The notes beneath the pieces are model-generated. The model worked only from the letters and a program-made list of their open reading frames with translations, searched no databases and was not told the DNA's origin. The position numbers were made by a program, and so were the translations under genes. A stretch of 64,000 nucleotides of DNA from a virus (taxonomy: Duplodnaviria; Heunggongvirae; Uroviricota; Caudoviricetes). Below, in pieces: positions 5,172 through 57,157 of this stretch (its first letter is position 1; every line of letters starts with the position of its first letter). Location: the IMG/VR virus record IMGVR_UViG_3300042483_000604; one strand, given 5' to 3'.

Positions 5172-5989
5172 TAGTTAACCAATGCTGTAGCTAATTTAAA
5201 AAGCTTTTGATTAACTTCTAGATCTTTCTCGAATGATTTAATCTTTCTAACCTTTCTTACTTTAGCACCATTCAATGCTGCTGAATATCCTCCTTGAGTA
5301 ATCTTCTCTTGGATTACATTAAATACTTTCCAGAGATCATTTCCTTTATCAGCATCTCTTACAGGAGTTAGAACGTCTTGAATAGTCTCTTCATCCCACT
5401 CAGCATCGATTCTATTAGTTCTCAATTGCATTGCATCAATTGCTAACTGTCTTTGCTCTGCAGGAGTCAATTCTCTTAACTGCATTTTGTTAAGAATGTC
5501 TACTTTATTAGGAAGATCAGCTACTGCTTGAGATACTACTCCTCTTAATTCTTCGAAGGTATATCCTGTATGTCTGATTCTGAATGCTGAGAATTCTTCA
5601 TCAGCTACTACTAATCCATTTGAGCATACTAATCTGTAGATACCAATTCTGAATTGAAAAGAATTAAATCCATCATGAGAGTTCGTTAAAATGATTCTTG
5701 GGAAAGCATCATCACCATTCTTACCTTTGATCATAAGATCTGGATTTTGAAATGATACCATATGTTTTGAGAAGATTGTATCTTTACCTCTAGATTTTCT
5801 TTGAGAGGCAGTTACTGGCTTCCATCCTAACTTCTCTAAGTCATCGATGATAGTCTCAGTATTAACATGTAAATATTTACCACTTACTTTAGTACTTGTC
5901 GGTGCTGTAGCGAATGCTACTGGTGCTAAAGCTTTTACTTGATCTTTTGAAAGGTAAGAATCTAAACCTGTAGTGAATTTTGATAACAT
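5171..5989 (-). CDS. DUF932-family phage/plasmid protein
   Basis: conserved ILTNSHDGxxxFQ block typical of DUF932. Confidence 0.55.
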   Translation of the reverse strand: MLSKFTTGLDSYLSKDQVKALAPVAFATAPTSTKVSGKYLHVNTETIIDDLEKLGWKPVTASQRKSRGKDTIFSKHMVSFQNPDLMIKGKNGDDAFPRIILTNSHDGFNSFQFRIGIYRLVCSNGLVVADEEFSAFRIRHTGYTFEELRGVVSQAVADLPNKVDILNKMQLRELTPAEQRQLAIDAMQLRTNRIDAEWDEETIQDVLTPVRDADKGNDLWKVFNVIQEKITQGGYSAALNGAKVRKVRKIKSFEKDLEVNQKLFKLATALVN

Positions 5990-9187: not shown

Positions 9188-10495
9188 CTATGCAAATATA
9201 AACTTCTGTGAAGCTATTAGTGCATCTGTGGTTAACTGTTTTTTATATGTCTGCATTATATTCTCTTTCTTCTTTATATCAAATGTAAAAGGTCCGTAAC
9301 TAAAAACACCTTCTTCGTTTTGATCTACAACAGTATGTATATTTTCTATTAAATTCCTTAACTCTGCATTAAAACTCTCTTTTAGTTCTGAATACTTAAA
9401 AGAAATTACAATATCTTCTTCTATTTCTGAGTCTATATCTGTAGTTACTATCCTTGTGTTAAAGTCTGTAGGATTAAAAAACTCCTTTACAGATTCCCAA
9501 TACTCTTTAGTATACTTCCATCGAAGATTACTGTAGTAGTGTGCTTCAAACTCTATCCTATTTTTAAGTTCCTCTGCAACTTGACTATCTGTTAGGTACA
9601 TTTTCTTACAATAAGGCTCTAACCATTGAAGTAATTCAAAATTAACCATTCTATCTATCTCTACCTTAAATGCTATATTATAGACAGGTTGTGGATGATG
9701 TCCAAAGAATCCCCACTTACGGATAAATCTCTTTAACTCTTGCATGTCTGCTTGCTGCTGTAATTCATTCTTATACGCTGCATCTGCATTAGTTTTATAC
9801 CAATCTGTACCTCTACTTGATACGCAAGTAAAATGGTATACACAAGCATTCCAAGTCTGTACCATTTCTAAATCACAAAGCTCCATTCTAATAATAGTAT
9901 CAGAGTCTTCTCTAGAGCATCTGAATTGTGTGTCAAAGCCTCCTAGTATATCAAACCATGTCTTTTTATATACAGCAAATGGAGCAAAGTGTCCAACCAT
10001 GGTAGGTCTATTCTCTTTTTGTAACTCATCTACAAATAAATTAAAAGCTTCATAGTCAAATTCTTCAGGAGTAATTCCAAAGTCTTTTACAATCTTTTCT
10101 GGAGAGCCTGGATGAAGTGGAGGTTCTATTCTAGCCATCGACAATACTCTCTTCTCCGATGTTAGATTTTCTAATATATGTTTATCAAAGTCCTTACCTA
10201 CTACCATGTCTGATTGTAAGTAACATACTAGATCATTCTTAGCTGCATCAAACATTACTGATATGTTCCTTTGCCCCCCTACAGGGTAGGGGTTAGGATT
10301 TTTACATATACGTAAGTTACTTATAGAGCTTTTGTACTCATTAAGTGCTTCGTATGTATTTTGATTGTCTGAATCTATAAAGATTAATACTTCATGTTTG
10401 TCTATAGTAGTATGATCTATTAAAGAATTCAGTAATAGTTTTGTATACTCTCTTTCGTTGTTAGCTGAAGCTATGCAAAACGTAATTGATTTCAT
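9188..10495 (-). CDS. family-2 glycosyltransferase (GT-A) with C-terminal extension
   Basis: N-terminal ITFCI..NNE..L pattern and DxD-type GT2 architecture. Confidence 0.6.
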   Translation of the reverse strand: MKSITFCIASANNEREYTKLLLNSLIDHTTIDKHEVLIFIDSDNQNTYEALNEYKSSISNLRICKNPNPYPVGGQRNISVMFDAAKNDLVCYLQSDMVVGKDFDKHILENLTSEKRVLSMARIEPPLHPGSPEKIVKDFGITPEEFDYEAFNLFVDELQKENRPTMVGHFAPFAVYKKTWFDILGGFDTQFRCSREDSDTIIRMELCDLEMVQTWNACVYHFTCVSSRGTDWYKTNADAAYKNELQQQADMQELKRFIRKWGFFGHHPQPVYNIAFKVEIDRMVNFELLQWLEPYCKKMYLTDSQVAEELKNRIEFEAHYYSNLRWKYTKEYWESVKEFFNPTDFNTRIVTTDIDSEIEEDIVISFKYSELKESFNAELRNLIENIHTVVDQNEEGVFSYGPFTFDIKKKENIMQTYKKQLTTDALIASQKFIFA

Positions 10496-10496
10496 A

Positions 10497-11255
10497 TTAC
10501 TTTTTTCTTAAAACCGCTAAGTAATTTATTTGTGAAGGATCTAATACTATCTCTACTAATTCAAAGTTATCTTGAATATCTTTGTTCTGTTGGTCATTTA
10601 AGAAGCTTGAGTATAATTCTCCTGTAGATAAAGTCTGTAGAAATTCTTCTGCGATTAATGCATTATCGTATTTAAACCATCCTCTTGACTTAAGTGGATT
10701 TTGTATATCTTCCATAAAGTAGTACCCTCCTGATTTTAACACTCCTATAGCTTTCCAAAGACTCACCATCATATGATTAGGCCAGTGGCTTCCGTCTTCA
10801 ACTACAAAATCAAATCTATTAGGAAATAATTCATTTAACTCATTCCAATCATCAAAGCTTCCTTGATCAGCATAAATAAAATTAACACCTTCACTGTTTA
10901 GTTTAGTAATATCCTCTAACTTATCTCCTATTTTATGCCCCCAGAAGTTATCTACAGCATATAGATCTAAGTCTTTAAAATAACTTTTCCACATCTTAAT
11001 AGATGCATAAGGAAATCTCTTATCACAAACACCTATTTCAAGCATACTGATAGAATCGTTTTTACTACTGTTCATATATTTTTCATAAGTAGTTGAATAA
11101 TGCCAACTTCTATGTGTGGCGTATTCTGTTCCCCATGATAAATTTACTGAATCGGATGTTCCTTTATCTGTTTCAAATTGATTTGCTAATTCTGATAAAG
11201 ATTTCTCCGGGCTGTGGTAAGGGTTATTGCTGTTTGTTTTTAAAAATAATTCCAT
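10497..11255 (-). CDS. class I SAM-dependent methyltransferase (TylF/MycF-like, sugar O-methyltransferase type)
   Basis: FETDKGT...H.Y..Y and MLEIGV Rossmann motif, VVEDGSH block. Confidence 0.55.
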   Translation of the reverse strand: MELFLKTNSNNPYHSPEKSLSELANQFETDKGTSDSVNLSWGTEYATHRSWHYSTTYEKYMNSSKNDSISMLEIGVCDKRFPYASIKMWKSYFKDLDLYAVDNFWGHKIGDKLEDITKLNSEGVNFIYADQGSFDDWNELNELFPNRFDFVVEDGSHWPNHMMVSLWKAIGVLKSGGYYFMEDIQNPLKSRGWFKYDNALIAEEFLQTLSTGELYSSFLNDQQNKDIQDNFELVEIVLDPSQINYLAVLRKK

Positions 11256-47848: not shown

Positions 47849-48979
47849 TTAATGTGAATCTCCTACATCATGCTTCTCTCCGTAGATCAAATAGTCTGGA
47901 TTGATTACCTTTGCTACTTTCTTTCTATCACCTGAGGTATGTTTGATTACAATTCCTTCATGTGGTACTTTTGTTCCTTCAATGAAGTTATTAAATACAA
48001 ACATGTCTTGAACTTCTTGATTCCAAGTTCCGGTGTAAAGTACTTCTACGTGAGGTAAGTGTAACATATTGATTATTTCATATTGAGCTGAATCTGTTGA
48101 GAGATATTCGTTATCCATTTTTAAATCAAATCCTACGAACTCAATATCTTTCAAACCATATTCATAGTTCTTTTGAATACCGGCTCCATAAATTTCTCCG
48201 TAAAGAATAATTCCATCACCTACATGATAAGTTCCAAGAATATCACATAGGTCCCAAAGTTTTTCTTTAATACTATATTTTTCAGCTATTGTTCTCCAAA
48301 CATCAGTTGAGTAAAATCCTTGTGAGTCACTTCCTTTTTCACAGTTATGTGATCCATAAATGTATTCATAATCAATCCACTCATCAGCAAGTCTAAAGAA
48401 TTTTTTTACTTTATCCCAGAATGATAACTTACCTTTCTTTACAATACCGTATCTAGCATTTGTACCATGAATCTTTCTAGTGATTTGAACCATATCTTCT
48501 TCAGTGAACATTCCTGCTACGTTTTTAAGATTCGGGAATTTGTAGTAGATGTGGAAGTTTTGATTGTCTCTCCACTTAATCTTTCTACCTGAAGCCAATT
48601 GAATTTGTTTAACTGGTGGTTCATATTTTACAATACCAAATTTTTCCATCATGTCATCTCCATCTTGGTATCTGTCTCCATATCCTGGAATGTATTTAGT
48701 TGGGATGATTAGACATTCAGAATAAACTCCTCTTAATTTTACAGTTCTTACTCTACCTCCTTTTCTTAGGTAAGAAGTAACTCCCATTTTTTCAGAAAAT
48801 GCTTCTGGAATTACTGCATCTGTAGTTGCAATAACTGTTAAGTCACCTTCTTTAAATTCACCTTTTTTAGTGATAGCATTCCATCCTCCAACAATTACTT
48901 GTTCAATGTTGTCAGCATTTGGGATTGCTTTAATTTCGTTGATTGTTGCTACAAAGCAAACACTATTTTGATTTTCCAT
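47849..48979 (-). CDS. ATP-dependent RNA ligase (Rnl-type) with N-terminal OB/tRNA-binding-like domain
   Basis: KIHGTN nucleotidyltransferase motif I; promoter 47799-47831. Confidence 0.55.
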   Translation of the reverse strand: MENQNSVCFVATINEIKAIPNADNIEQVIVGGWNAITKKGEFKEGDLTVIATTDAVIPEAFSEKMGVTSYLRKGGRVRTVKLRGVYSECLIIPTKYIPGYGDRYQDGDDMMEKFGIVKYEPPVKQIQLASGRKIKWRDNQNFHIYYKFPNLKNVAGMFTEEDMVQITRKIHGTNARYGIVKKGKLSFWDKVKKFFRLADEWIDYEYIYGSHNCEKGSDSQGFYSTDVWRTIAEKYSIKEKLWDLCDILGTYHVGDGIILYGEIYGAGIQKNYEYGLKDIEFVGFDLKMDNEYLSTDSAQYEIINMLHLPHVEVLYTGTWNQEVQDMFVFNNFIEGTKVPHEGIVIKHTSGDRKKVAKVINPDYLIYGEKHDVGDSH

Positions 48980-49087
48980 TTTCTTTAATTTTGTTACACA
49001 TAATACATTTAACTTCTTTCAATACTAACCTTGTCCCTCGATAATTTATTTTCCAAAATTCTCTGAAGTCATGTTTGCATTCTTTTT

Positions 49088-49489
49088 TCATAACTGTACC
49101 TCGAATCTATTTTTCATTTGTACTAATTTTTCTTCTGGGACTCCATGCTCATTTACTCCTCCATGTCTATTTTCTACAATTAAAGAATAAACTCTGTATC
49201 CGTATTTTTCTGCTAGATCATAGTATGGTTGCATTTCCCATTCCTGAGTGAATGTATTTGATACTATAATTTTTTCATCAGGATTTATTCCGTTCCAATT
49301 TGACATTGACTCTTCAACTACTTGTCTACACCATTCATGAGCTGCTTTTAAATTTGAAGCATTGAATTCATATTCTCCTTTCTCATTAAGAAAGAAATGA
49401 TCTGCTTCATACCAAGAACCCCCTATACAATTTGCAAATGTTGATTTACCTGCTCCAGGTAATCCTCTTAATAAAAATAACTCTTTCAT
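49088..49489 (-). CDS. polynucleotide 5'-kinase (P-loop, T4 Pnk kinase-domain-like)
   Basis: LRGLPGAGKST Walker A, small AAA_33-type fold. Confidence 0.55.
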   Translation of the reverse strand: MKELFLLRGLPGAGKSTFANCIGGSWYEADHFFLNEKGEYEFNASNLKAAHEWCRQVVEESMSNWNGINPDEKIIVSNTFTQEWEMQPYYDLAEKYGYRVYSLIVENRHGGVNEHGVPEEKLVQMKNRFEVQL

Positions 49490-49634
49490 ACTATTCTCTT
49501 TTATCAGATAAATACTTTAAATAAAATGCCCATACTAAGTAGAATGTAGCTCTATCAATTTCTCCTGTCCATGTTGCTCCTACAGCCAAACCTGTACTTA
49601 TTGCTGAGGCTATTAGTAGTGTTGTTTTCATATT

Positions 49635-49904
49635 TTATATTTTTATAATATTATTTACTACTAATGCTCCTATGGCGTAACCTAAAGCTAAAGCAAAGGC
49701 CATTTTTATACGTTCATTCCAGAATTTAGATTCTACCATATAACCTGCAAACGGTAAAGCTAGAAATGGACCAATAAAAGCAAAAAATACCATTCCTATT
49801 GTATTAGCTTCTGCTGTAAAGCGAATATAGAATGTTGAACAAATCTCTATAATTAAAGCACTTGTAAAAATTATTCCATATTTTATATTAGATTCTTTTC
49901 TCAT
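49635..49904 (-). CDS. small membrane protein
   Basis: three hydrophobic segments. Confidence 0.4.
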   Translation of the reverse strand: MRKESNIKYGIIFTSALIIEICSTFYIRFTAEANTIGMVFFAFIGPFLALPFAGYMVESKFWNERIKMAFALALGYAIGALVVNNIIKI

Positions 49905-50538
49905 GATGATCCTTTGGCAACTCTAACTTTCTTATTGGCTGTTTTTCCATCAACGATAATACTTCGTCTAATGAAATTGGCTCTAAACCGTTTCCATCTA
50001 CTCCAACATCCATTGCTTTACCCTCTGCTACTCTTATATCTGCCGGTAAATGAACGTGTCCATGTAAGTGAATTACTCCGATGTTCATATCATGCCATGA
50101 CGCAATTGGATAGTGCATACAAACAAAAGTAAACTTTTCAGTTGTTGCTTTGTTGATTGGTCTTCTTACTTCTAATCTCAAGTATTGCTGTACTGAAGAA
50201 AATAGTCTTTGAATACCTTCCTTGTTTCTTTCAATGTGGTGATCATGGTTTCCAAGTACCAAGTGAATGTTTTTACAGTTGATTTGACTTCTGAATTCTT
50301 CAATCTTATCAAATCCTCCAAAGCTAAAATCCCCTAAGTGAATTAGAATATCATCTTCACCAACCATGTTGTTGATGTTATCCACCAAAGTCTTATTCAT
50401 AGAGGCAAGTGAATCGAATTCTCTTGTCAAGTTTGAAGACTCAGTCCAGTTTGTAGTAGCACTGCAAATGTTTGAATGTGAGTAATGTGTGTCTGATGTA
50501 AAGAACAATTGTTGTCCTTTTTCTAATACTAGTTTCAT
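49888..50538 (-). CDS. metallophosphoesterase (candidate 2',3'-phosphatase partner of the kinase/ligase)
   Basis: DTHYSH, HLGDF, GNHDHH, HGHVH motifs; promoter 50554-50586. Confidence 0.55.
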   Translation of the reverse strand: MKLVLEKGQQLFFTSDTHYSHSNICSATTNWTESSNLTREFDSLASMNKTLVDNINNMVGEDDILIHLGDFSFGGFDKIEEFRSQINCKNIHLVLGNHDHHIERNKEGIQRLFSSVQQYLRLEVRRPINKATTEKFTFVCMHYPIASWHDMNIGVIHLHGHVHLPADIRVAEGKAMDVGVDGNGLEPISLDEVLSLMEKQPIRKLELPKDHHEKRI

Positions 50539-50553
50539 GTCTTATTAATTATA

Positions 50554-50586
50554 CCTAAATATACGAATAAAAGCCTGCCGAAGCAA
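50554..50586 (-). promoter_or_regulatory. promoter motif with UUCG-loop hairpin plus U-run in spacer (terminator-promoter module)
   Basis: sequence. Confidence 0.55.
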
Positions 50587-50920
50587 GCTTTTTGTTAATT
50601 ATTTTTAAAAAAATTGTTGCTGGGATGTAAAGCATATAGACGATGTCGAATGCAAAATCAAGGTCAAAGACCTTCCTTACCACAAAGGCAAGGACAAGAA
50701 CTAAGTCTCAAAGTTGTTAGCCAATTACCTCTTTCGAGCAGACCTGTCTAACGGTTGAGTTCTATCTCAGTTTTGTAAAGTTTGTAAGGAAGCGAGTGTT
50801 AAAGGGCACCTGGCCATTAAATGTAGTTGATTTGCTATCATATAGTTTTATATTTAAAACTCCACTATCCCAGCATAAAGCTTTGGAGGATCGGCTTGTG
50901 CTTACCTCCTTAGCACCAAA

Positions 50921-51832
50921 TTATTGTAACTGTTTTAAGAACATATCAACCACTGGCTGAAATCTAGAATCAATATCAATCTTCATATTAGCAGCTTCTT
51001 TGATTCTTTCTTGACGTTTTGCTTCAAATTCATTAGAAGCTTTTCTAAAATCAGCTCTCCATTTCTCCAACCCTGCATTGTAGTCAGCATCCTGTTTGCC
51101 GTTTATCTCATTCAATTCAGCTTGAATTTCTGCTCTTTCATTAGCAATACGAGCATTTTCAGTTGTTACTGAGTTCTTTACTTTAGATTTAAAGTAGTTA
51201 ACTTTTTGCTCATAGTTTCTATGAAGACTAGCTAACTCTTCGTGAATTGCAAGTAACCCTTCTGAGGTGTGGTGAATAGAAACTTTCATAGGAGTTTTCT
51301 TTCCTACTTCGATTTCCATAAACTCTAAAGTCTTAATGGTAGGTAATTCACTTCTTAATTTATCTAATTTACCTCCTTTGTGGATAAATTGTCCAATATG
51401 TGAAGCGTAAGCTTCTGCTTCTAAGTATTCGTTATACTCTGCTGTAGTCAATTGAGACCATCCCCATTCCTCATCTATTAAGGAAGGTAATTCTTTAGTT
51501 GCAGTTTTAGGTCTTTCTGGAGCTAGGATAGTATAGTCAAAGTCCTCAAATTGGATCTCTTTGATTAATTCGTCTTTTGCTTTGATGTTCTCCATCAAGA
51601 AGGCTTGTGTAGCAGATAGTCTTGCTTTTTCTGTTAACAGTTCTACTGTATTTGCAGGCATTGGATTACCCTGAGTCTCAGTATAGGTCTCTGAGCCAAT
51701 TACTAATGTTTTAGAAACATTATTAACATCTGCTAATTTATTAGAAATTTCTTTTGCTCTTTGATTGCACAAGTTTGAGATTGATTGTGCTTGAGACATT
51801 GATAACCCTTTTGTAGATAACGAATTTTTCAT
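50921..51832 (-). CDS. hypothetical coiled-coil protein
   Basis: ORF track. Confidence 0.45.
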   Translation of the reverse strand: MKNSLSTKGLSMSQAQSISNLCNQRAKEISNKLADVNNVSKTLVIGSETYTETQGNPMPANTVELLTEKARLSATQAFLMENIKAKDELIKEIQFEDFDYTILAPERPKTATKELPSLIDEEWGWSQLTTAEYNEYLEAEAYASHIGQFIHKGGKLDKLRSELPTIKTLEFMEIEVGKKTPMKVSIHHTSEGLLAIHEELASLHRNYEQKVNYFKSKVKNSVTTENARIANERAEIQAELNEINGKQDADYNAGLEKWRADFRKASNEFEAKRQERIKEAANMKIDIDSRFQPVVDMFLKQLQ

Positions 51833-51911
51833 ATGATAACTTTTTAATTTTGATTTATACTCTAATATAAGAAGAAAGGTTCAGGTTTCCAAACCTTTCT
51901 CCGAATATTTC

Positions 51912-52163: not shown

Positions 52164-52212
52164 GTACTACATTGGAGATGAGGGAATTGCTCTCATATTG
52201 GATAAACTTTAG

Positions 52213-52287
52213 TGTCCTATACAGGATTCGAACCTGTGACCTTCTCGTTATGAGCGAGCTGCTCTAACCGGCTGAGCTAAAAGGACA
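52213..52287 (-). tRNA. tRNA-Met/Ile2 (CAT)
   Basis: GGTTCGAATCC T-loop on minus strand, cloverleaf with CTCATAA anticodon loop. Confidence 0.7.
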
Positions 52288-52292
52288 ATTTG

Positions 52293-52366
52293 TAGCGTAG
52301 CGTGGACTCGAACCACCCCCCAGGCTTATGAGACCTAGATGCAACCTTTACACCTTAACGCAATTT
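52293..52366 (-). tRNA. tRNA-like, CAT anticodon loop, poorly paired acceptor/D arms
   Basis: TTCGAGT T-loop and CTCATAA loop, but acceptor has only 4 bp. Confidence 0.3.
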
Positions 52367-52372
52367 ATAAGC

Positions 52373-52444
52373 GGTCTGCACGGGGATCGAACCCGCAATC
52401 TTCGCAGTGACAGTGCGACGTGTTACCAATAACACCTCCAGACC
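52373..52444 (-). tRNA. tRNA-Asp (GTC)
   Basis: cloverleaf, loop CTGTCAC. Confidence 0.75.
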
Positions 52445-52498
52445 AAAATGCCCGTCTGTTCCGAGCTGTCAACCACCAGCTGTTATACAGCTGTATAG

Positions 52499-52570
52499 TG
52501 GAGCTACCGGGATTCGAACCCGGAATAACAGAATGCAAATCTATCGTGATGCCAATTTCACTATAGCCCC
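52499..52570 (-). tRNA. tRNA-Ala (TGC)
   Basis: cloverleaf, G3-U70 identity pair, loop TTTGCAT. Confidence 0.8.
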
Positions 52571-52645
52571 AGTTACTCGTCTTTCCGAGTCGTCAAATCT
52601 AGAAGCTGATTAAGCTATTCCTCCTAATACGAATAAAGAGCTCTG

Positions 52646-52717
52646 TACTGCGTACGGGATTCGAACCCGTGCCTTATCATAGAAAGTGATACGTGTTTAC
52701 CCCTTCACTAACGCAGC
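52646..52717 (-). tRNA. tRNA-Glu (TTC)
   Basis: cloverleaf, loop CTTTCTA. Confidence 0.75.
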
Positions 52718-52723
52718 AATTTG

Positions 52724-52795
52724 AGCGGCTAGAGAGAATCGAACTCTCATCTTTAGATTGGAAGTCTAAAGTAATGACCATTATACGATAGCCGC
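52724..52795 (-). tRNA. tRNA-Gly (TCC)
   Basis: cloverleaf, loop CTTCCAA. Confidence 0.8.
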
Positions 52796-52800
52796 AGTTG

Positions 52801-52874
52801 AGCTTCTGGACGGGATCGAACCGACTCTATTCTGGGTTACAAATCCAGTGCACCACCATTTGTGCGTCAGAAGC
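52801..52874 (-). tRNA. tRNA-Thr (TGT)
   Basis: cloverleaf, loop TTTGTAA closed by an A-C mismatch. Confidence 0.6.
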
Positions 52875-53069
52875 AAATTTAAACTATTAGAGGCTATTGG
52901 GAGTCATCAGTGGCAGCCTTTCACCGTAAACTCGGCTTCCCAATCTTATCTGCACATCTATCTAACTTTTTACGCATAATAGTTTATATTTTAATTAGAG
53001 CCGGGCTATGAATCCGTTCTGCAGGTTAGCCCCTGCTGCTTTAACCTTTATAAGCTAACTCTAATTTTG

Positions 53070-53143
53070 TACCCAAGGAGGGACTCGAACCCTCAATATC
53101 TAGATCCTAAGTCTAGCGTGTCTGCCAATTCCACCACTCGGGC
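53070..53143 (-). tRNA. tRNA with anticodon TAG (Leu-like D arm, short variable arm)
   Basis: GTGGAATTGGCAGAC D-arm like tRNA-Leu, loop CTTAGGA, A73, but only a 5-nt variable region. Confidence 0.5.
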
Positions 53144-53238
53144 ATTTGCCGCATGTGCGGCCACTTATCAATCGGTAGCTCCCTCTCGTTGTCCATCTGT
53201 GGGTGTAACACATTTGGTAGAGGGTCGAACCTTCAATG

Positions 53239-53309
53239 AGGTCGGTGTTGGAATCGAACCAACGTTACAGAGTTTGCAATCCTGCGCCTAACCATTCGGC
53301 CAACCGACC
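53239..53309 (-). tRNA. tRNA-Cys (GCA)
   Basis: cloverleaf, loop TTGCAAA, U73. Confidence 0.65.
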
Positions 53310-53394
53310 AATTTAAACATCTAGCCTGACCTGCCAGACAGTACGTGTCGTCGATCGTGCGTTACGTAGTAGATGTTTTATCTTCTTTCTTATA

Positions 53395-53427
53395 CTTAAA
53401 GATATGAACTTTATTTCTTTCTAGCAA
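53395..53427 (-). promoter_or_regulatory. promoter motif positioned to transcribe the tRNA sub-array 52213-53309
   Basis: sequence. Confidence 0.5.
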
Positions 53428-53436
53428 CTTTTTTTA

Positions 53437-53943
53437 CTAAAAAAATAAAAAAGTTTCCCATTCCTTTGGTATGTGTGTCATAGTTCTCATTAACATTAAA
53501 TAGTGAGGTCTTTTTGGTTCTGGAATTTCCTTACCGTATTCCTCTAATGTTAAATCTGCTTTCTCATGATTACATGGTCTGCAGGCTGTTACTAAATTAT
53601 CCCAAGCATCTTTTCCTCCTTTTGATTGAGGTATAACATGGTCAAGTGTTAGTGTTCTTTGATTTGAACATCCGCAGTAAACACATTCGTAATTATCTCT
53701 TCTATAAATATTCTCTCTTGTTAGAGCTACTTTTTGAATATTATGTTTTACATATGTAAATACTCTAATAATAGAAGGTTTATAAATTGTTAATTCTGGG
53801 TTATACAGATTAAATGTTTCTGGATGTTCAGCTATTACTTCAGCATTACCTTTATAAGAAATCACGAAAGCTCTTTCTGTACTTATAACTGATCTTGCGA
53901 TAAAGCTGGCATCTACTACTAGTGCTTTTTGATACTTACTCAT
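53437..53943 (-). CDS. HNH endonuclease inserted within the tRNA array
   Basis: CVYCG...LDHVIPQSKGG..WDNLVTAC..CNHEK canonical HNH motif. Confidence 0.8.
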   Translation of the reverse strand: MSKYQKALVVDASFIARSVISTERAFVISYKGNAEVIAEHPETFNLYNPELTIYKPSIIRVFTYVKHNIQKVALTRENIYRRDNYECVYCGCSNQRTLTLDHVIPQSKGGKDAWDNLVTACRPCNHEKADLTLEEYGKEIPEPKRPHYLMLMRTMTHIPKEWETFLFF

Positions 53944-53975
53944 GATTTACTTTTTTTAATGAAACAATATATTTG

Positions 53976-54052
53976 CGCGAACCCTAGGAATCGAACCCAG
54001 CCGTCGAGGTTTTGGAGACCTGACCGACACCTTGTCTGTGGAACGCATTTGT
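53976..54052 (-). other. degenerate tRNA-like element
   Basis: TTCGATT T-arm but no acceptable acceptor/anticodon arms. Confidence 0.25.
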
Positions 54053-54118
54053 AGGGTATCGCTTAACCTACCTAGATTAGCCTCATCTACTTAACCCTTA
54101 TGAGGGACGATTTTTTTG

Positions 54119-54189
54119 AACCCATACCTGGACTTGAACCAGGACTGAAACGTTAGAAGCGTTTAGTTCTTCCGATTAAACTATACGGG
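54119..54189 (-). tRNA. tRNA-Arg (TCT)
   Basis: cloverleaf, loop CTTCTAA, TTCAAGT T-loop. Confidence 0.7.
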
Positions 54190-54195
54190 CAGTTG

Positions 54196-54267
54196 AGGTC
54201 TTAGTAGGAGTCGAACCTACGTTCTATCGTTCGTAGCGATAAGTTTTTCCAATTAAACTATAAGACC
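54196..54267 (-). tRNA. tRNA-Arg (ACG)
   Basis: cloverleaf, loop CTACGAA. Confidence 0.75.
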
Positions 54268-54343
54268 AAATAAGAGAGGCTTTATTTAAGCTACTTTCTG
54301 CTATGCAACAGGGTAGGCAATTAGTCCTACATCTCTCTCTTTG

Positions 54344-54423
54344 TACCCCTGACTGGAGTCGAACCAGCAAGCCTGAGCGCCAAGTTTTAAGCCTGGTGTG
54401 TTTACCATTTTCACCACAGGGAT
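54344..54423 (-). tRNA. tRNA-Leu (TAA), class II
   Basis: loop CTTAAAA, 11-nt variable arm, A73. Confidence 0.65.
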
Positions 54424-54430
54424 ATGTTTG

Positions 54431-54504
54431 TGTGAAAGATGGGACTCGAACCCACAATCTCCTGAACCACAATCAGACGCTTTACCAATTCAGCTACAAT
54501 CACC
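54431..54504 (-). tRNA. tRNA-His (GTG)
   Basis: loop TTGTGGT, extra 5' G(-1); acceptor has two U-U mismatches. Confidence 0.55.
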
Positions 54505-54710
54505 ATATTGTACCGACTACAAGTTACGCTCTTGTCTGAGAATACTTATGAGATATTCTCGATCCTAGATCAAGTCGGTAGTTGATAGGGAACCTCTTAC
54601 CCTATCGCTGTACTATCTGATTTTAAAGTGTCTTACCACGGGGCCCCGTTCGTACTTCCTTCTCCTGCATTCCTTAGATGCGTTGTGAGGACGGTGAGGA
54701 GGTTTTTTTG

Positions 54711-54793
54711 AGGAAAGCAGAGGTATCGAACCCCATGCCCGAAGGCACGATACGCTTAGCAAGCGGTCTCAACTCCTAGTTGATTTACTTTCC
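54711..54793 (-). tRNA. tRNA-Ser (GCT), class II
   Basis: loop TTGCTAA, long variable-arm hairpin with UUCG loop; T-stem imperfect. Confidence 0.45.
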
Positions 54794-54798
54794 CTTTG

Positions 54799-54872
54799 TA
54801 GGTAATATAGGAATCGAACCTATAACCTCTCACGTATCAGGCGAGTGCTCTAACCAATTGAGCTAATTACCT
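54799..54872 (-). tRNA. tRNA-Ile (GAT)
   Basis: clean cloverleaf, loop CTGATAC. Confidence 0.8.
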
Positions 54873-54879
54873 ATTTTTG

Positions 54880-54955
54880 TGCTCATAGCTGGAATCGAAC
54901 CAACCTCGATAAGTCACTTACTCCAACCAACTGCTACTTGTTACGTACCTTGAGC
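54880..54955 (-). tRNA. tRNA, anticodon unresolved
   Basis: good T-arm and acceptor; D/anticodon arms could not be folded by eye. Confidence 0.4.
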
Positions 54956-55032
54956 TTTTACGATTGACCGTCACGTTATCCCACTTCAGGTTGGGGAGCT
55001 ACCACACTACCTGTTATACGAGCATTTAATTG

Positions 55033-55104
55033 CGGGCCTGGGAGGAATCGAACCTCCATAAGATGATTAACAGTCATCCGTAATAACCTTTATACGACAA
55101 ACCC
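55033..55104 (-). tRNA. tRNA-Asn (GTT)
   Basis: cloverleaf, perfect GATGA/TCATC anticodon stem, loop CTGTTAA. Confidence 0.8.
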
Positions 55105-55109
55105 GGTTG

Positions 55110-55182
55110 TGGACCCTACAGGAATCGAACCTGTTCCTCTAGTTCTTCAGACTAGCGTACGCACCAGCTATACAAAAGGTCC
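55110..55182 (-). tRNA. tRNA-Phe (GAA)
   Basis: cloverleaf, loop CTGAAGA. Confidence 0.8.
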
Positions 55183-55187
55183 AATTG

Positions 55188-55270
55188 TGGGATACTGTGG
55201 AATCGAACCACACGCTTCTTACAGCAACGATTTTACAGACCGCTTATCACACCAGTGACTGAAGCATCCC
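55188..55270 (-). tRNA. tRNA-Tyr (GTA), class II
   Basis: loop CTGTAAA, long variable arm. Confidence 0.7.
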
Positions 55271-55276
55271 AATTTG

Positions 55277-55348
55277 ATCATTCTACAGGAATCGAACCTG
55301 CTTCTCCACCCTCCACGGGCAGCGTAGTCACCAATCTACCAAGAACGA
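55277..55348 (-). tRNA. tRNA, atypical anticodon loop CGTGGAG (TGG-like, lacks U33)
   Basis: good acceptor, D and T arms. Confidence 0.4.
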
Positions 55349-55447
55349 AACTATAACAAGCTTTCATCGGCAAATTACTAACTCATAATAGACTCCATAT
55401 AGTCTTGAAAATACTTGCCGGTATTTTACTTGCTACCCAGAATTTTG

Positions 55448-55518
55448 TACCTCGTGATAGAATCGAACTATCGCCCTTTGCATGTAAAACAAATACGCTA
55501 CCATTACGCCAACGAGGC
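55448..55518 (-). tRNA. tRNA-Val (TAC)
   Basis: cloverleaf, loop TTTACAT. Confidence 0.75.
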
Positions 55519-55575
55519 AAATCTAATTCTACGCTTCGGTCTAAAAGCCCTTCTATGAATTAGTAACAGTCTTCT
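55519..55575 (-). repeat. conserved tRNA 5'-leader, copy 1 (upstream of tRNA-Val)
   Basis: CAAATCTAATTCTACGCTTCG...CTTCTATGAATTAGTAACAGTCT shared with 55653-55712. Confidence 0.5.
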
Positions 55576-55579
55576 TTTG

Positions 55580-55652
55580 TACCCCCGGCTGGCCTCGAAC
55601 CAGCTACCCCCGAGTTAAAAGCCCGGTGCCCGTCCACATGAGCTTCGAAGGC
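55580..55652 (-). tRNA. tRNA-Lys (TTT)
   Basis: cloverleaf, loop CTTTTAA, perfect T-stem. Confidence 0.7.
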
Positions 55653-55712
55653 AAATCTAATTCTACGCTTCGAGGACTTACTCGCGTGGTCTTCTATGAA
55701 TTAGTAACAGTC
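55653..55712 (-). repeat. conserved tRNA 5'-leader, copy 2 (upstream of tRNA-Lys)
   Basis: direct repeat of 55519-55575. Confidence 0.5.
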
Positions 55713-55720
55713 TCTTCTCG

Positions 55721-55796
55721 TCTGGTAGGCAGGATTCGAACCTGCGTGCTCTAGCGTCCAAGGCCAGCGAGATAAACCGGACTCCTCTACTACCAG
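55721..55796 (-). tRNA. tRNA-Pro (TGG)
   Basis: cloverleaf, loop CTTGGAC. Confidence 0.75.
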
Positions 55797-56011
55797 TGGT
55801 GAAGGGATTATTTTTTTAAAGTAGAATTCGCCCATCTCAAAACTACTGTAATTTCCGTAAGCAAAGCCATCGGGCTGATTCCCTGTACTCATGTCTTGCA
55901 TCGTTTTCTCCATATGGATTTCTCCACTACTTACTGATAATGCTTTCTTTACTAACCGTCCTACTTACTGATCAAGTGTTGGGATAGGCTTTCATTACTT
56001 ACAATTATTTG

Positions 56012-56083
56012 TTGGCTTACTAGGATTCGAACCTAGACTAAAACAGTCAAAGTGTTTTGTGCTAACCGTTACACTATAAGCCA
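56012..56083 (-). tRNA. tRNA-Gln (TTG)
   Basis: cloverleaf, AAACA/TGTTT stem, loop CTTTGAC. Confidence 0.8.
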
Positions 56084-56089
56084 ATATTG

Positions 56090-56173
56090 AGGAAGACGTG
56101 GGACTCGAACCCACAACAGTATTACCTGCTACCACTTTTCAAGAGTGGCTCCTGATCCAGCCGGATGCCTTCC
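56090..56173 (-). tRNA. tRNA-Ser (TGA), class II
   Basis: CCACT/AGTGG stem, loop CTTGAAA, long variable arm. Confidence 0.7.
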
Positions 56174-56221
56174 CTATGCTTTATCCAATATGTCAATGAA
56201 CTCTTATTCTTTATTTCTGTA

Positions 56222-56253
56222 CCTAAAGATACGATTTTTTTTTCTTTCTAGCA
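56222..56253 (-). promoter_or_regulatory. promoter motif positioned to transcribe the tRNA sub-array ending at 56173
   Basis: sequence. Confidence 0.5.
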
Positions 56254-56270
56254 ACTTTTTTTTAATAAAA

Positions 56271-56305
56271 AACCCGAATCTTTTTTTGATCCGGGTACCT
56301 TACTT
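56271..56305 (-). terminator. hairpin plus U-run upstream of the promoter at 56222
   Basis: ACCCGGATC-A7-GATTCGGGT then U6 on the minus strand. Confidence 0.35.
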
Positions 56306-56332
56306 ATAATATGTATTTTATACTATATCATA

Positions 56333-56476
56333 TCATACCCCGGTACCTCCTTGTTTCGGTTCGTTATTATATCCAGCAAAGCCTAAAATGACATCCCCAC
56401 ATAACGAATCCGACCACGTATTCAATGCTCTTGTCGCTGTGCTAAGTTGTTGATGTATGTTTTGAATTGCTTTCAT
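56333..56476 (-). CDS. small hypothetical protein (47 aa)
   Basis: ORF preceded by tandem promoter motifs 56496-56527 and 56565-56596. Confidence 0.25.
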   Translation of the reverse strand: MKAIQNIHQQLSTATRALNTWSDSLCGDVILGFAGYNNEPKQGGTGV

Positions 56477-56495
56477 TTTATTTGCTTTCTATATA

Positions 56496-56527
56496 TAAAT
56501 ATATGAACTTTTCCATTCCAGTCCAAC
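56496..56527 (-). promoter_or_regulatory. promoter motif (tandem copy 1)
   Basis: sequence. Confidence 0.4.
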
Positions 56528-56564
56528 TATATTTTAATTTTTTTTCTTTGTGTTTTTATATATT

Positions 56565-56596
56565 ATAAATATACGAACTTTTATTTTATAAAACAA
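56565..56596 (-). promoter_or_regulatory. promoter motif (tandem copy 2)
   Basis: sequence. Confidence 0.4.
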
Positions 56597-56616
56597 CTAC
56601 TGTTCTTTGGATTAAT

Positions 56617-56928
56617 TTATCCGTTTATTAATTTTTTTTTCTTAACTGGCTCACATCCATCATTGTTAATTGACGTAAGTTTTTGTTCTAATTTGTCTAC
56701 TCTGGAGTCTGTATAGGAAATACAGTCTGAGTGTAGTTTGTTTACTCGATCAACTTCCTGATCAATTCTACGATTTACTAATTCATCGTTTCTAGAAATC
56801 CAGTTCTGTATTTCAGTTAACTCTTTTTCTTGCTTTGCTACTTTGCTTGCTGTTCTAAACGCTACCACAACCCCCCATGCAAGGAGAGCTATACCAACCC
56901 CTAAAACAAATGCTAAAATTTGTTCCAT
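56617..56928 (-). CDS. membrane-anchored coiled-coil protein
   Basis: N-terminal TM helix. Confidence 0.4.
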   Translation of the reverse strand: MEQILAFVLGVGIALLAWGVVVAFRTASKVAKQEKELTEIQNWISRNDELVNRRIDQEVDRVNKLHSDCISYTDSRVDKLEQKLTSINNDGCEPVKKKKLING

Positions 56929-56969
56929 AATTTATAATTTTTATTTCAAAGAACAGTAGTTTAATTTTG

Positions 56970-57066
56970 TAGTCAGGACAGGATTCGAACCTGCTCCAGC
57001 TTTGCCATAAATAGTATATTTCAACTAAACCTTGGGGAGGTGCCACCAACCAATGGTCTCCTGACT
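56970..57066 (-). tRNA. atypically long (97 nt) tRNA-like gene, possible insertion/intron
   Basis: canonical T-arm and 7-bp acceptor pairing, but ~25 extra nt between D and T regions. Confidence 0.35.
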
Positions 57067-57071
57067 GTTTG

Positions 57072-57157
57072 GAATCGGTGAGGGATTCGAACCCTCATCC
57101 CGCTTAGAAGCGGTGTTACCCTCTGTCGGTATTCATTCCCGATTACACCAACCGATT
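57072..57157 (-). tRNA. class II tRNA (Leu/Ser-like), anticodon unresolved
   Basis: perfect GAGGG/CCCTC T-arm, 7-bp acceptor, variable-arm hairpin CCGC-TTCTAA-GCGG. Confidence 0.5.

Follow-up and report, generated by a model that had tools for sequence, protein, structure and literature searches.

The stretch of DNA analysed here, referred to below as the window, comprises 64,000 nucleotides (nt) from a virus of the class Caudoviricetes (IMG/VR record IMGVR_UViG_3300042483_000604). It carries a gene for a protein of 303 amino acids (aa) and a Metallophos phosphoesterase gene (49888-50538), both on the minus strand, and between the two a structured non-coding RNA (ncRNA) is encoded on the same strand (Table 1). 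All genes near the ncRNA lie on the minus strand, as do the 23 tRNA genes at 52212-57157 called by ARAGORN, which found no tmRNA in the window. Comparison with homologous loci shows that this minus-strand RNA represents a new, widespread and strongly constrained family of structured RNAs coupled to one protein family. A preliminary description of the window, made from its sequence, had proposed a structured ncRNA in this segment, and that reading is now strongly supported by conservation, covariation, the lack of a conserved reading frame and a strand-specific excess of G-U pairs. As described there, no open reading frame (ORF) of at least 60 aa touches the segment (the longest that do have 54, 45 and 42 aa), which is correctly placed between the 303-aa gene, then called a coiled-coil protein gene, and the phosphoesterase gene. 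Read along the transcript, however, the tRNA array comes before the segment and not after it, and the RNA is followed, not preceded as had been stated, by the terminator/promoter module (50566-50615). The reported GC-richness is weak, at 0.375 compared with a window mean of 0.341 +/- 0.041, a value reached by 15.5% of intervals of equal size.

Homologues of the RNA were found in more than 100 non-redundant contigs of uncultured phages (IMG/VR), with lengths of 270-390 nt across the family and about 310 nt in the window, where the family profile covers positions 50598-50919. On contigs fetched via the protein, the RNA directly follows the 303-aa gene down to protein identities of about 50%, and all 63 non-redundant loci chosen through the protein carry it (iterated nhmmer). 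A protein-independent scan with a DNA pattern returned 118 stretches, 87 of them with the RNA, and the 303-aa gene was found directly upstream on the same strand in every pattern-found locus with enough upstream DNA. The RNA mostly starts 1-25 nt past the stop codon of this gene, and sometimes after an insert of 80-300 nt. The genes downstream of the RNA, on the other hand, are diverse, and those of 98 loci make up over 50 clusters unrelated to one another. With a constant upstream gene and unrelated downstream genes, the RNA belongs to the upstream gene and is no leader for the next one.

The secondary structure was derived from an alignment of 57 sequences (A1) and from a column-pair analysis of 97 sequences, non-redundant at 93%. 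The minus-strand fold of the segment has a z-score of -3.5 (none of 100 shuffles was as good), the plus-strand fold one of -2.3. Alignment of homologues, which the preliminary description had suggested as a check, indeed shows compensatory changes: 24 of the 31 pairs in the RNAalifold consensus on A1 are compensated, and 85.7% of the cells of the helix pairs are paired, versus 71.9% after shuffling and 36-50% with partners slid. Changes on both sides affect 45 pairs and 508 cells (34.7 and 167 expected), and five pairing measures on A1 were reached by none of 500 shuffles. The frequency of G-U pairs (8.0%) exceeds that of A-C (3.0%), which identifies the minus strand as the folded one.

Four helices, H1, H2, H3 and H5, form the scaffold. 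H1, which is preceded by an invariant GGU (50915-50917), corresponds to the GGAGG...CCTCC hairpin noticed earlier (50885-50889 / 50905-50909); its loop holds a mini-helix of 2 bp, 50900-50901 with 50894-50895, of which alignment columns 21 and 28 covary (GC 50, AU 6). The long-range complementarity noticed at the same time is also real and lies within the closing helix H2, although its coordinates had been misplaced by 2-4 nt (GCTGGGAT occupies 50619-50626 and ATCCCAGC 50867-50874). H2 has 15 bp (9+6, with one bulge), with changes on both sides in 14 of them and 88% of cells paired, and analysis of mutual information (MI) agrees with it. In H5, 8 of 9 pairs show changes on both sides, and perfectly compensated variants occur in A1 as well as in remote homologues. 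Most homologues retain the hairpin H6, for which one clade has a longer hairpin instead, and the variable region between H2 and H5 contains UUCG-capped stems in other phages. Some other pairings were rejected. A local hairpin given by RNAalifold, CCUU.G.CCUU/AAGG.AAGG, was superseded by the long-range H5 with its perfectly compensated variants; a helix of the 5′ GGUG and a UACU close to the 3′ end clashes with an extension of H2 and shows a one-sided change only; and a possible switch, in which CUUUAC would pair with the H5 3′ strand, reached a mean of 68% paired with MI near 0.

The most unusual part of the RNA is an almost invariant core of U(U/A)G triplets arranged in two arrays, one between H3 and the H5 3′ strand, the other between the H5 3′ strand and the H2 3′ strand. 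All nine triplets stand in exact 6-nt register, the 18-nt gap over H5 corresponding to three periods. The U and G of each triplet carry 1.8-2.0 bits over the 97 sequences and the spacers are variable; three triplets in register are present in 92 of the 97 RNAs. The four-triplet pattern has 3 matches in the window against 0.26 expected; two of these overlap, forming a second array match of TWG type at 56889-56915 inside a membrane-protein ORF, which was dismissed as a coincidence. No covarying partner for the triplet segments was found by column-pair/MI analysis or by pair counting, and the core is apparently unpaired. The heptamer GUCUUUG, found in 79 of the 97 RNAs with a near-invariant copy just after H5, equals the high-affinity consensus GTCTTTG/T of Bacillus subtilis CspB, which was measured on DNA (PMC1904285).

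Table 1. Features of the ncRNA locus (positions in the window; paired strands are given 5′ strand first)
Feature	Position	Strand	Sequence or remark
Terminator hairpin and promoter-like TATATTAG upstream of the 303-aa gene	51864-51902	minus	likely start of the transcription unit
303-aa gene	50921-51832	minus	always precedes the RNA; linkage in every locus with enough upstream DNA
Structured ncRNA	50606-50919	minus	putative ends: 5′, first base past the stop codon; 3′, U-run beyond the closing helix
H1, 5′ hairpin	50880-50914	minus	pairs 50912-50914/50880-50882 and 50905-50909/50885-50889; all 8+2 pairs changed on both sides
H1 loop (15 nt)	50890-50904	minus	UAAGCACAAGCCGAU, contains GC-ANAA-GC; columns near invariant in A1
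H2 closing helix, 5′ strand	50860-50875	minus	UGCUGGGAU, bulged A, GUGGAG
Variable region	50793-50859	minus	clade-specific hairpins (e.g. GGC-CAGGU-GCC); A1 columns 66-228, length and sequence vary, poorly alignable
H5, 5′ strand	50784-50792	minus	CUUCCUUAC, invariant CGC before; pairs with 50672-50680
H6 hairpin	50756-50769	minus	UGAG-AUAGAA-CUCA; 83-91% of cells paired
H3	50744-50752 with 50716-50724	minus	GUUAG-A-CAG / UUG-G-CUAAC; 7/8 pairs with both-side changes; 97% of cells paired
H3 variable apical hairpin	50729-50738	minus	
Array B5	50683-50706	minus	ACUUAG UUCUUG UCCUUG CCUUUG; four U(U/A)G triplets at 6 nt
H5, 3′ strand	50672-50680	minus	GUAAGGAAG; between the two triplet arrays
Array B6	50633-50670	minus	(G)UCUUUG ACCUUG AUUUUG CAUUCG ACAUCG; five triplets, same register; starts GUCUUUG, invariant CUAUAU after
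H2 closing helix, 3′ strand	50618-50632	minus	CUUUAC-AUCCCAGCA; then conserved AAC and U-run 50606-50617
Intrinsic terminator, UUCG tetraloop	50566-50593	minus	AAAAAGCUUGC-UUCG-GCAGGCUUUUAUU; predicted from sequence and folding, would end the gene and RNA unit

The association extends well beyond the reach of the RNA profile. Four remote homologues of the 303-aa protein (profile E 1e-30 to 1e-50) were placed on contigs by exact look-up, and in each case a gene-free gap of 500-800 nt follows the gene. The nhmmer profile of the RNA no longer matches these four gaps, and Rfam gives no match in them either. They nevertheless keep the RNA architecture, with the closing helix, CGC and H5, hexamer arrays and a terminal CUAUAU/CUACAC motif. 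GGUG stands just past the stop codon in three of the four loci, and the closing helix is long (17 bp in locus L356). Behind CGC, H5 occurs in compensated form (CATCTAGTTC/GAACTAGATG in L356, TGCTATACTC/GAGTGTAGCA in L359), and U-rich NNYUUG hexamer arrays flank its 3′ strand on both sides, followed by GACUAUAU or GACUACAC. Since remote protein homologues retain the same RNA architecture, RNA and protein have been co-inherited over a long evolutionary distance.

Among cultured phages, a tblastn search of 50,697 phage records with the 303-aa protein gave no match. The sole cultured-phage similarity of the segment is to a 69-nt terminator/promoter module of Flavobacterium phage immuto, which has a phosphoesterase gene 92% identical to that of the window but lacks both the RNA and the 303-aa gene beside it. 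The module itself is 81% identical at the DNA level and the flanks of 49888-50610 show no DNA similarity, so that this interval looks like a recently exchanged mosaic block, which hints at a Flavobacterium-type host. A pattern scan of bacterial genomes, one per species, yielded one true match among the matches listed, the remainder being due to chance. The true match, which carries the gene and RNA module, is a scaffold of 362,763 bp deposited as part of a metagenome-assembled genome (MAG) of 'Candidatus Paceibacterota' (L280, JBAZIW010000001.1); it has the length of an IMG/VR viral contig and probably stems from a jumbo phage that was wrongly assigned to a bacterium. Among the chance matches, those at 2640-2760 and 5480-5600 of an Anaerolineae MAG (L309) are a GACTTA/GACTTT hexamer microsatellite beside GGGTT-rich repeats, unrelated to the RNA.

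The arrangement of predicted signals suggests that the 303-aa gene and the RNA form one transcription unit. The promoter-like sequence of the phosphoesterase gene, TATATTTAG, comes after the terminator that would end this unit. Entropy at third codon positions is 1.50 in the last 10-20 codons of the 303-aa gene and 1.55-1.63 further upstream; synonymous sites there are thus not unusually conserved, and the end of the gene holds no conserved promoter or RNA element. At least five U residues within 25 nt past H2 are found in 32 of 96 homologues, versus a background of 5%. As a side observation, an intergenic module consisting of a terminator hairpin and an AT-rich stretch, in which a promoter-like TATATT(T)AG box stands some 30 nt ahead of the following start codon, is repeated in the window (50540-50615 and 51864-51902), and the last 70 nt of the query recur two to three times per related locus, with copies of the module in L031, L035, L104 and others.

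The 303-aa protein has more than 2,500 close homologues, all of about 303 aa and named 'hypothetical'. No Pfam domain was detected in it or in ten remote members scanned, and comparison with PHROG gave one weak match (E = 1.5e-4) to a family without assigned function. A profile search of 1.84 billion representatives retrieved 784 clusters at E <= 0.001, 142 of them at E <= 1e-30; among the 150 of these 784 that were listed, some of them fragments, full-length members have 280-370 aa and match the whole profile in a single stretch, with no fused domain. The AlphaFold (AF2) monomer model (pLDDT 87.6, pTM 0.77) consists of long helical hairpins and two small beta-hairpin units, and structure searches with it found no informative fold match. 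The protein is mildly acidic, with a predicted isoelectric point of 5.7 and 41 lysine and arginine versus 47 aspartate and glutamate residues. As read from the alignment, the helix spanning residues 190-243 presents conserved H, R, E, Q, N, Y and K on one face. Stop codons of the gene across loci are TAA (66) and TAG (40), with no TGA. Separately, a suppressor-type tRNA with anticodon TTA, reading UAA, is the nearest upstream tRNA in two related loci (ARAGORN).

Neither component corresponds to a described family. Rfam 15 (4,227 families) returned only tRNAs at gathering scores for the whole window, and only chance-level matches at E <= 10 for positions 50400-51100, the best with 22 bits against a gathering score of 80. 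None of the identities suggested in the preliminary description (ROOL, GOLLD, HEARO, intron, tmRNA, RNase P) was matched at either threshold. The lack of any Rfam match, coupled with that of a discrete transcript, had been put forward there as grounds to discard the RNA; an empty Rfam search is no valid refutation, as the comparative evidence shows the RNA to be real yet uncatalogued. No description of the RNA or the protein was found in Rfam, Pfam, the PDB, PHROGs or the papers searched, although a catalogue from 2023 containing 10,006 unnamed candidate viral RNA structures might list the RNA without describing it (PMC10690425).

Genes for tRNAs are common in the neighbourhood: of 111 non-redundant loci, 82 (74%) have one at a distance of up to 5 kb, on the same strand in 81, and in a few loci a tRNA gene begins 6-27 nt past the RNA. 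The nearest upstream tRNA is tRNA-Met(CAT) in 25 of 45 cases, a pattern which includes the window. Downstream of the RNA, the window has a minus-strand set of genes (47849-50538) for an RNA ligase (47849-48979), an AAA_33 kinase-like protein (49088-49489), an 89-aa ORF and the phosphoesterase; in these genes for ligase, kinase and phosphoesterase, which stand next to the array of 23 tRNAs, an RNA-repair set can be suspected. In some other loci, the RNA adjoins genes for Ro60/TROVE or RNA ligase. In five jumbo-phage loci (L234, L044, L050, L057 and L058; about 200-435 kb), a 526-aa TROVE/Ro60 protein (Pfam E = 4e-10) starts 17-25 nt past the RNA, and in L234 (TROVE gene 9334-10914) the module lies inside a dense tRNA array. 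The downstream neighbour is other than TROVE in 93 of 98 loci. Two further elements were noted in passing. A 492-aa TnpB-like protein (Cas12f1-like TNB and OrfB_IS605 domains) is inserted about 180 nt past the RNA in L073. In the window, a tRNA-like sequence of about 94 nt (56972-57065, minus strand) is found 3′ of tRNA-Leu(CAG), with acceptor stem GTCAGGA/TCCTGAC and a perfect T-arm, GCAGGTTCGAATCCTGT; it was called neither by ARAGORN nor by the Rfam tRNA model, matches tRNA-Sec only weakly (18.7 bits, E = 0.22), and may represent either a mimic of tRNA or an unusual tRNA that contains a long insert.

The interpretation we favour, at a probability of roughly 45%, is that an uncatalogued ncRNA is made together with the 303-aa gene, that its triplets provide a platform for a single-strand RNA-binding protein, and that it acts in trans in a tRNA and RNA-repair programme. 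Transcription would begin at the promoter near 51865 and proceed through the 303-aa gene to the U-run or terminator (50566-50617), and the RNA would be either the structured 3′ part of this transcript or a product cut out of it. The helix scaffold would display the nine triplets, of which four precede the H5 3′ strand and five follow it, and the array may offer a multivalent platform on which several copies or subunits of the protein land, following the logic of TRAP/HutP or CsrB/RsmX. As first candidate partner, the co-inherited helical 303-aa protein would be favoured on account of its strict linkage to the RNA; alternatively, the identity of GUCUUUG with the CspB consensus would point to cold-shock or other OB-fold proteins. 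The resulting particle would act in trans during infection, within the tRNA and RNA-repair programme of the phage.

The comparison with TRAP and HutP rests on the way in which these proteins work. Both are oligomers that bind one triplet per subunit, and the sites of HutP form two clusters split by a spacer, as in the RNA described here. Their targets, like CsrB, RsmX and RsmZ, present a regularly spaced short motif with variable spacers in single strands on a structured scaffold, and the RNA has what characterises TRAP/HutP-type targets, namely at least six conserved, apparently unpaired triplets at a regular spacing of 5-7 nt with variable spacers; the resemblance is one of working, not of homology. 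The motif differs: here it is U(U/A)G with a period of 6 nt, in the known systems (G/U)AG every 5-6 nt or loop-borne GGA. Rfam's rsmX model matched only with E = 0.15, via the terminator, and no TRAP, HutP or CsrA homologues were found next to the RNA.

Several points weigh against the favoured interpretation. The 5′ and 3′ ends of the RNA, and any processing, rest on inference. The 303-aa protein is acidic and its model has no recognisable RNA-binding fold, so that direct binding is unproven, and it might be strictly linked to the RNA simply because the two are transcribed together. The conserved core might instead be engaged in tertiary contacts or in multimers of the RNA, to which covariation is blind because the core is invariant. 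Ties to tRNA and RNA-repair genes are a statistical neighbourhood only, and repair genes like those of the window are found in just 15-21% of loci. It is tempting to go one step further and to speculate that RNA and 303-aa protein constitute a new phage ribonucleoprotein, in which the protein, or cold-shock or OB-fold proteins of the host, assemble on the nine units in a counter-defence based on tRNA supply and RNA repair. Such a ribonucleoprotein might shield or present tRNAs, or soak up a host factor that targets RNA; we regard this extended version as rather doubtful.

The constant position of the RNA, on the same strand and just past the stop codon of one gene, together with the absence of a conserved promoter of its own and a U-run that often stands behind the closing helix, would also suit a purely cis-acting element of the 3′ untranslated region, with no function in trans, that shields the mRNA of the 303-aa gene against 3′ exonucleases, terminates transcription, or tunes the translation or termination of this gene. 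We consider this unlikely. About 310 nt with many invariant unpaired positions far exceed the needs of a stabiliser or terminator, a separate canonical terminator follows in the window, the conservation of the RNA sequence far exceeds that of synonymous sites in the 303-aa gene, and the RNA architecture survives where the protein family is detectable by profile only.

A second rival leaves the adjacent protein out and sees in the RNA a sponge or recruiter for cold-shock-domain, S1 or other OB-fold proteins of host or phage, bound one per 6-nt unit. This unit length agrees with the footprint of a cold-shock domain, which is 6-7 nt. The occurrence of the CspB consensus in most of the RNAs and the acidity of the 303-aa protein speak for such a role, which we nonetheless judge improbable: the consensus comes from a Firmicute protein and from binding to DNA, and it is left unexplained why the RNA, even in deeply diverged phages, is linked without exception to the 303-aa gene.

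The Ro60 genes found next to the RNA in one clade raise the question of a Y-RNA-like cofactor, whose bulged terminal stem would anchor Ro60, or enzymes of RNA repair, on damaged tRNA or rRNA. Y RNAs have 80-130 nt, a conserved Ro-binding helix in the terminal stem and a tRNA-like domain, and Y RNA/YrlA with Ro60 (Rsr) resembles the present system as an ncRNA among RNA-repair and tRNA genes with a long, bulged 5′/3′ stem (PMC4201824). No canonical Y RNA was found by Rfam in L234, the one TROVE locus scanned, the stem of the RNA has a one-base bulge, and the RNA stands beside genes for ligase, kinase and phosphoesterase in the window as well as in other loci. However, there is no TROVE gene in the 64-kb window or beside most homologues, the RNA is about three times longer than known Y RNAs and has no tRNA-like domain, no Rfam Y-RNA model matches at E <= 10, and the sequence of the stem covaries freely, with no conserved Ro-binding helix. 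A cofactor of this kind is therefore quite implausible.

That the segment acts as DNA (iterons, an origin or a packaging site) or encodes a small protein is very improbable. Its TTTGAC-like hexamers are iteron-like, and both strands have short ORFs (25-45 aa) that overlap with the core; against this, the G-U wobble in the helices is strand-specific and the segment keeps its place with respect to the stop codon and the terminator. Comparison of homologues revealed no conserved small ORF of the kind that, according to the preliminary description, would have spoken against an RNA. Of 97 sequences, only 31 keep the best frame open across the conserved core, the lengths of indels are not multiples of three, and the longest stop-free stretch switches strand and frame between homologues. 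Small ORFs on both strands, including a basic one of 25 aa and one of 42 aa, were rejected, as their frames are not kept; in the two frames that are open in the window, would-be four-fold-degenerate positions are invariant and first and second positions vary. Finally, a group I intron, intron remnant or other ribozyme in or after the 303-aa gene, although GAGACUUAG and CUAGUCUAUAU resemble R/S (P7) elements and the order of H5, R/S-like segment, small hairpin and partner mimics a P3/P7 pseudoknot, is extremely unlikely, given that no Rfam intron or ribozyme model matches at E <= 10, that the P7-like pairing (AGAC/GUCU) is uncompensated (none of 4 pairs with both-side changes; 12 and 17 broken cells in two pairs), that about 20 nt between 'P7' and 'P3′' is not group I geometry, and that the protein keeps its end and its length of about 303 aa in more than 2,500 homologues, with no exon 2, no open frame after the RNA and unrelated downstream genes. 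The intron, coding and DNA-element readings are thus essentially excluded.

Other known systems share single traits with the module. In type III toxin-antitoxin systems, direct repeats in tandem, each of about 35-45 nt, precede the gene of an endoribonuclease toxin; a ToxI-like identity was rejected, the repeats here being 6-nt units in an RNA downstream of a gene whose protein has no Pfam match. The omega RNAs of TnpB/IscB are likewise encoded at the 3′ end of the gene of their partner and inherited with it. Their partner is a RuvC-type nuclease, and they overlap the 3′ end of its gene and carry a terminal guide, whereas the 303-aa protein has no RuvC or nuclease domain and the RNA does not overlap the coding sequence and ends in AAC and a U-run, with no variable guide. 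The stable RNAs of phage T4 (species 1 and 2, rnaC/rnaD), of about 120-140 nt and without an assigned function, are also found in a region of tRNA genes; to our knowledge, they have no dedicated protein gene. ROOL (about 580 nt) and GOLLD (about 800 nt) often occur in phages or prophages next to tRNA genes, and we know of no strict coupling of either to one protein gene. They are similar to the present RNA in being large structured ncRNAs of unassigned function with many conserved positions beyond secondary structure (10.1101/2024.12.08.627333). The RNA described here shows no sequence or structure match to them, has about half their size or less, and is strictly coupled to one gene.

Large, intricately folded RNAs of bacteria and phages without an assigned function are rare, and each of them has opened a new line of research. 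The present one is well defined, with apparently clear ends, four proven helices and unusual invariant triplets, it is abundant in environmental phages, and its dedicated partner gene offers an immediate experimental handle. As RNA and protein are both absent from the sequenced cultured phages searched, the whole module is overlooked by ordinary annotation. If RNA and protein do form a ribonucleoprotein, the system would be widespread, with 784 protein clusters at 50% identity, including jumbo phages of 360-430 kb, and no characterised relative. Located as it is among genes for tRNAs and RNA repair, the RNA may be a missing component of the means by which large phages protect translation against attack by the host.

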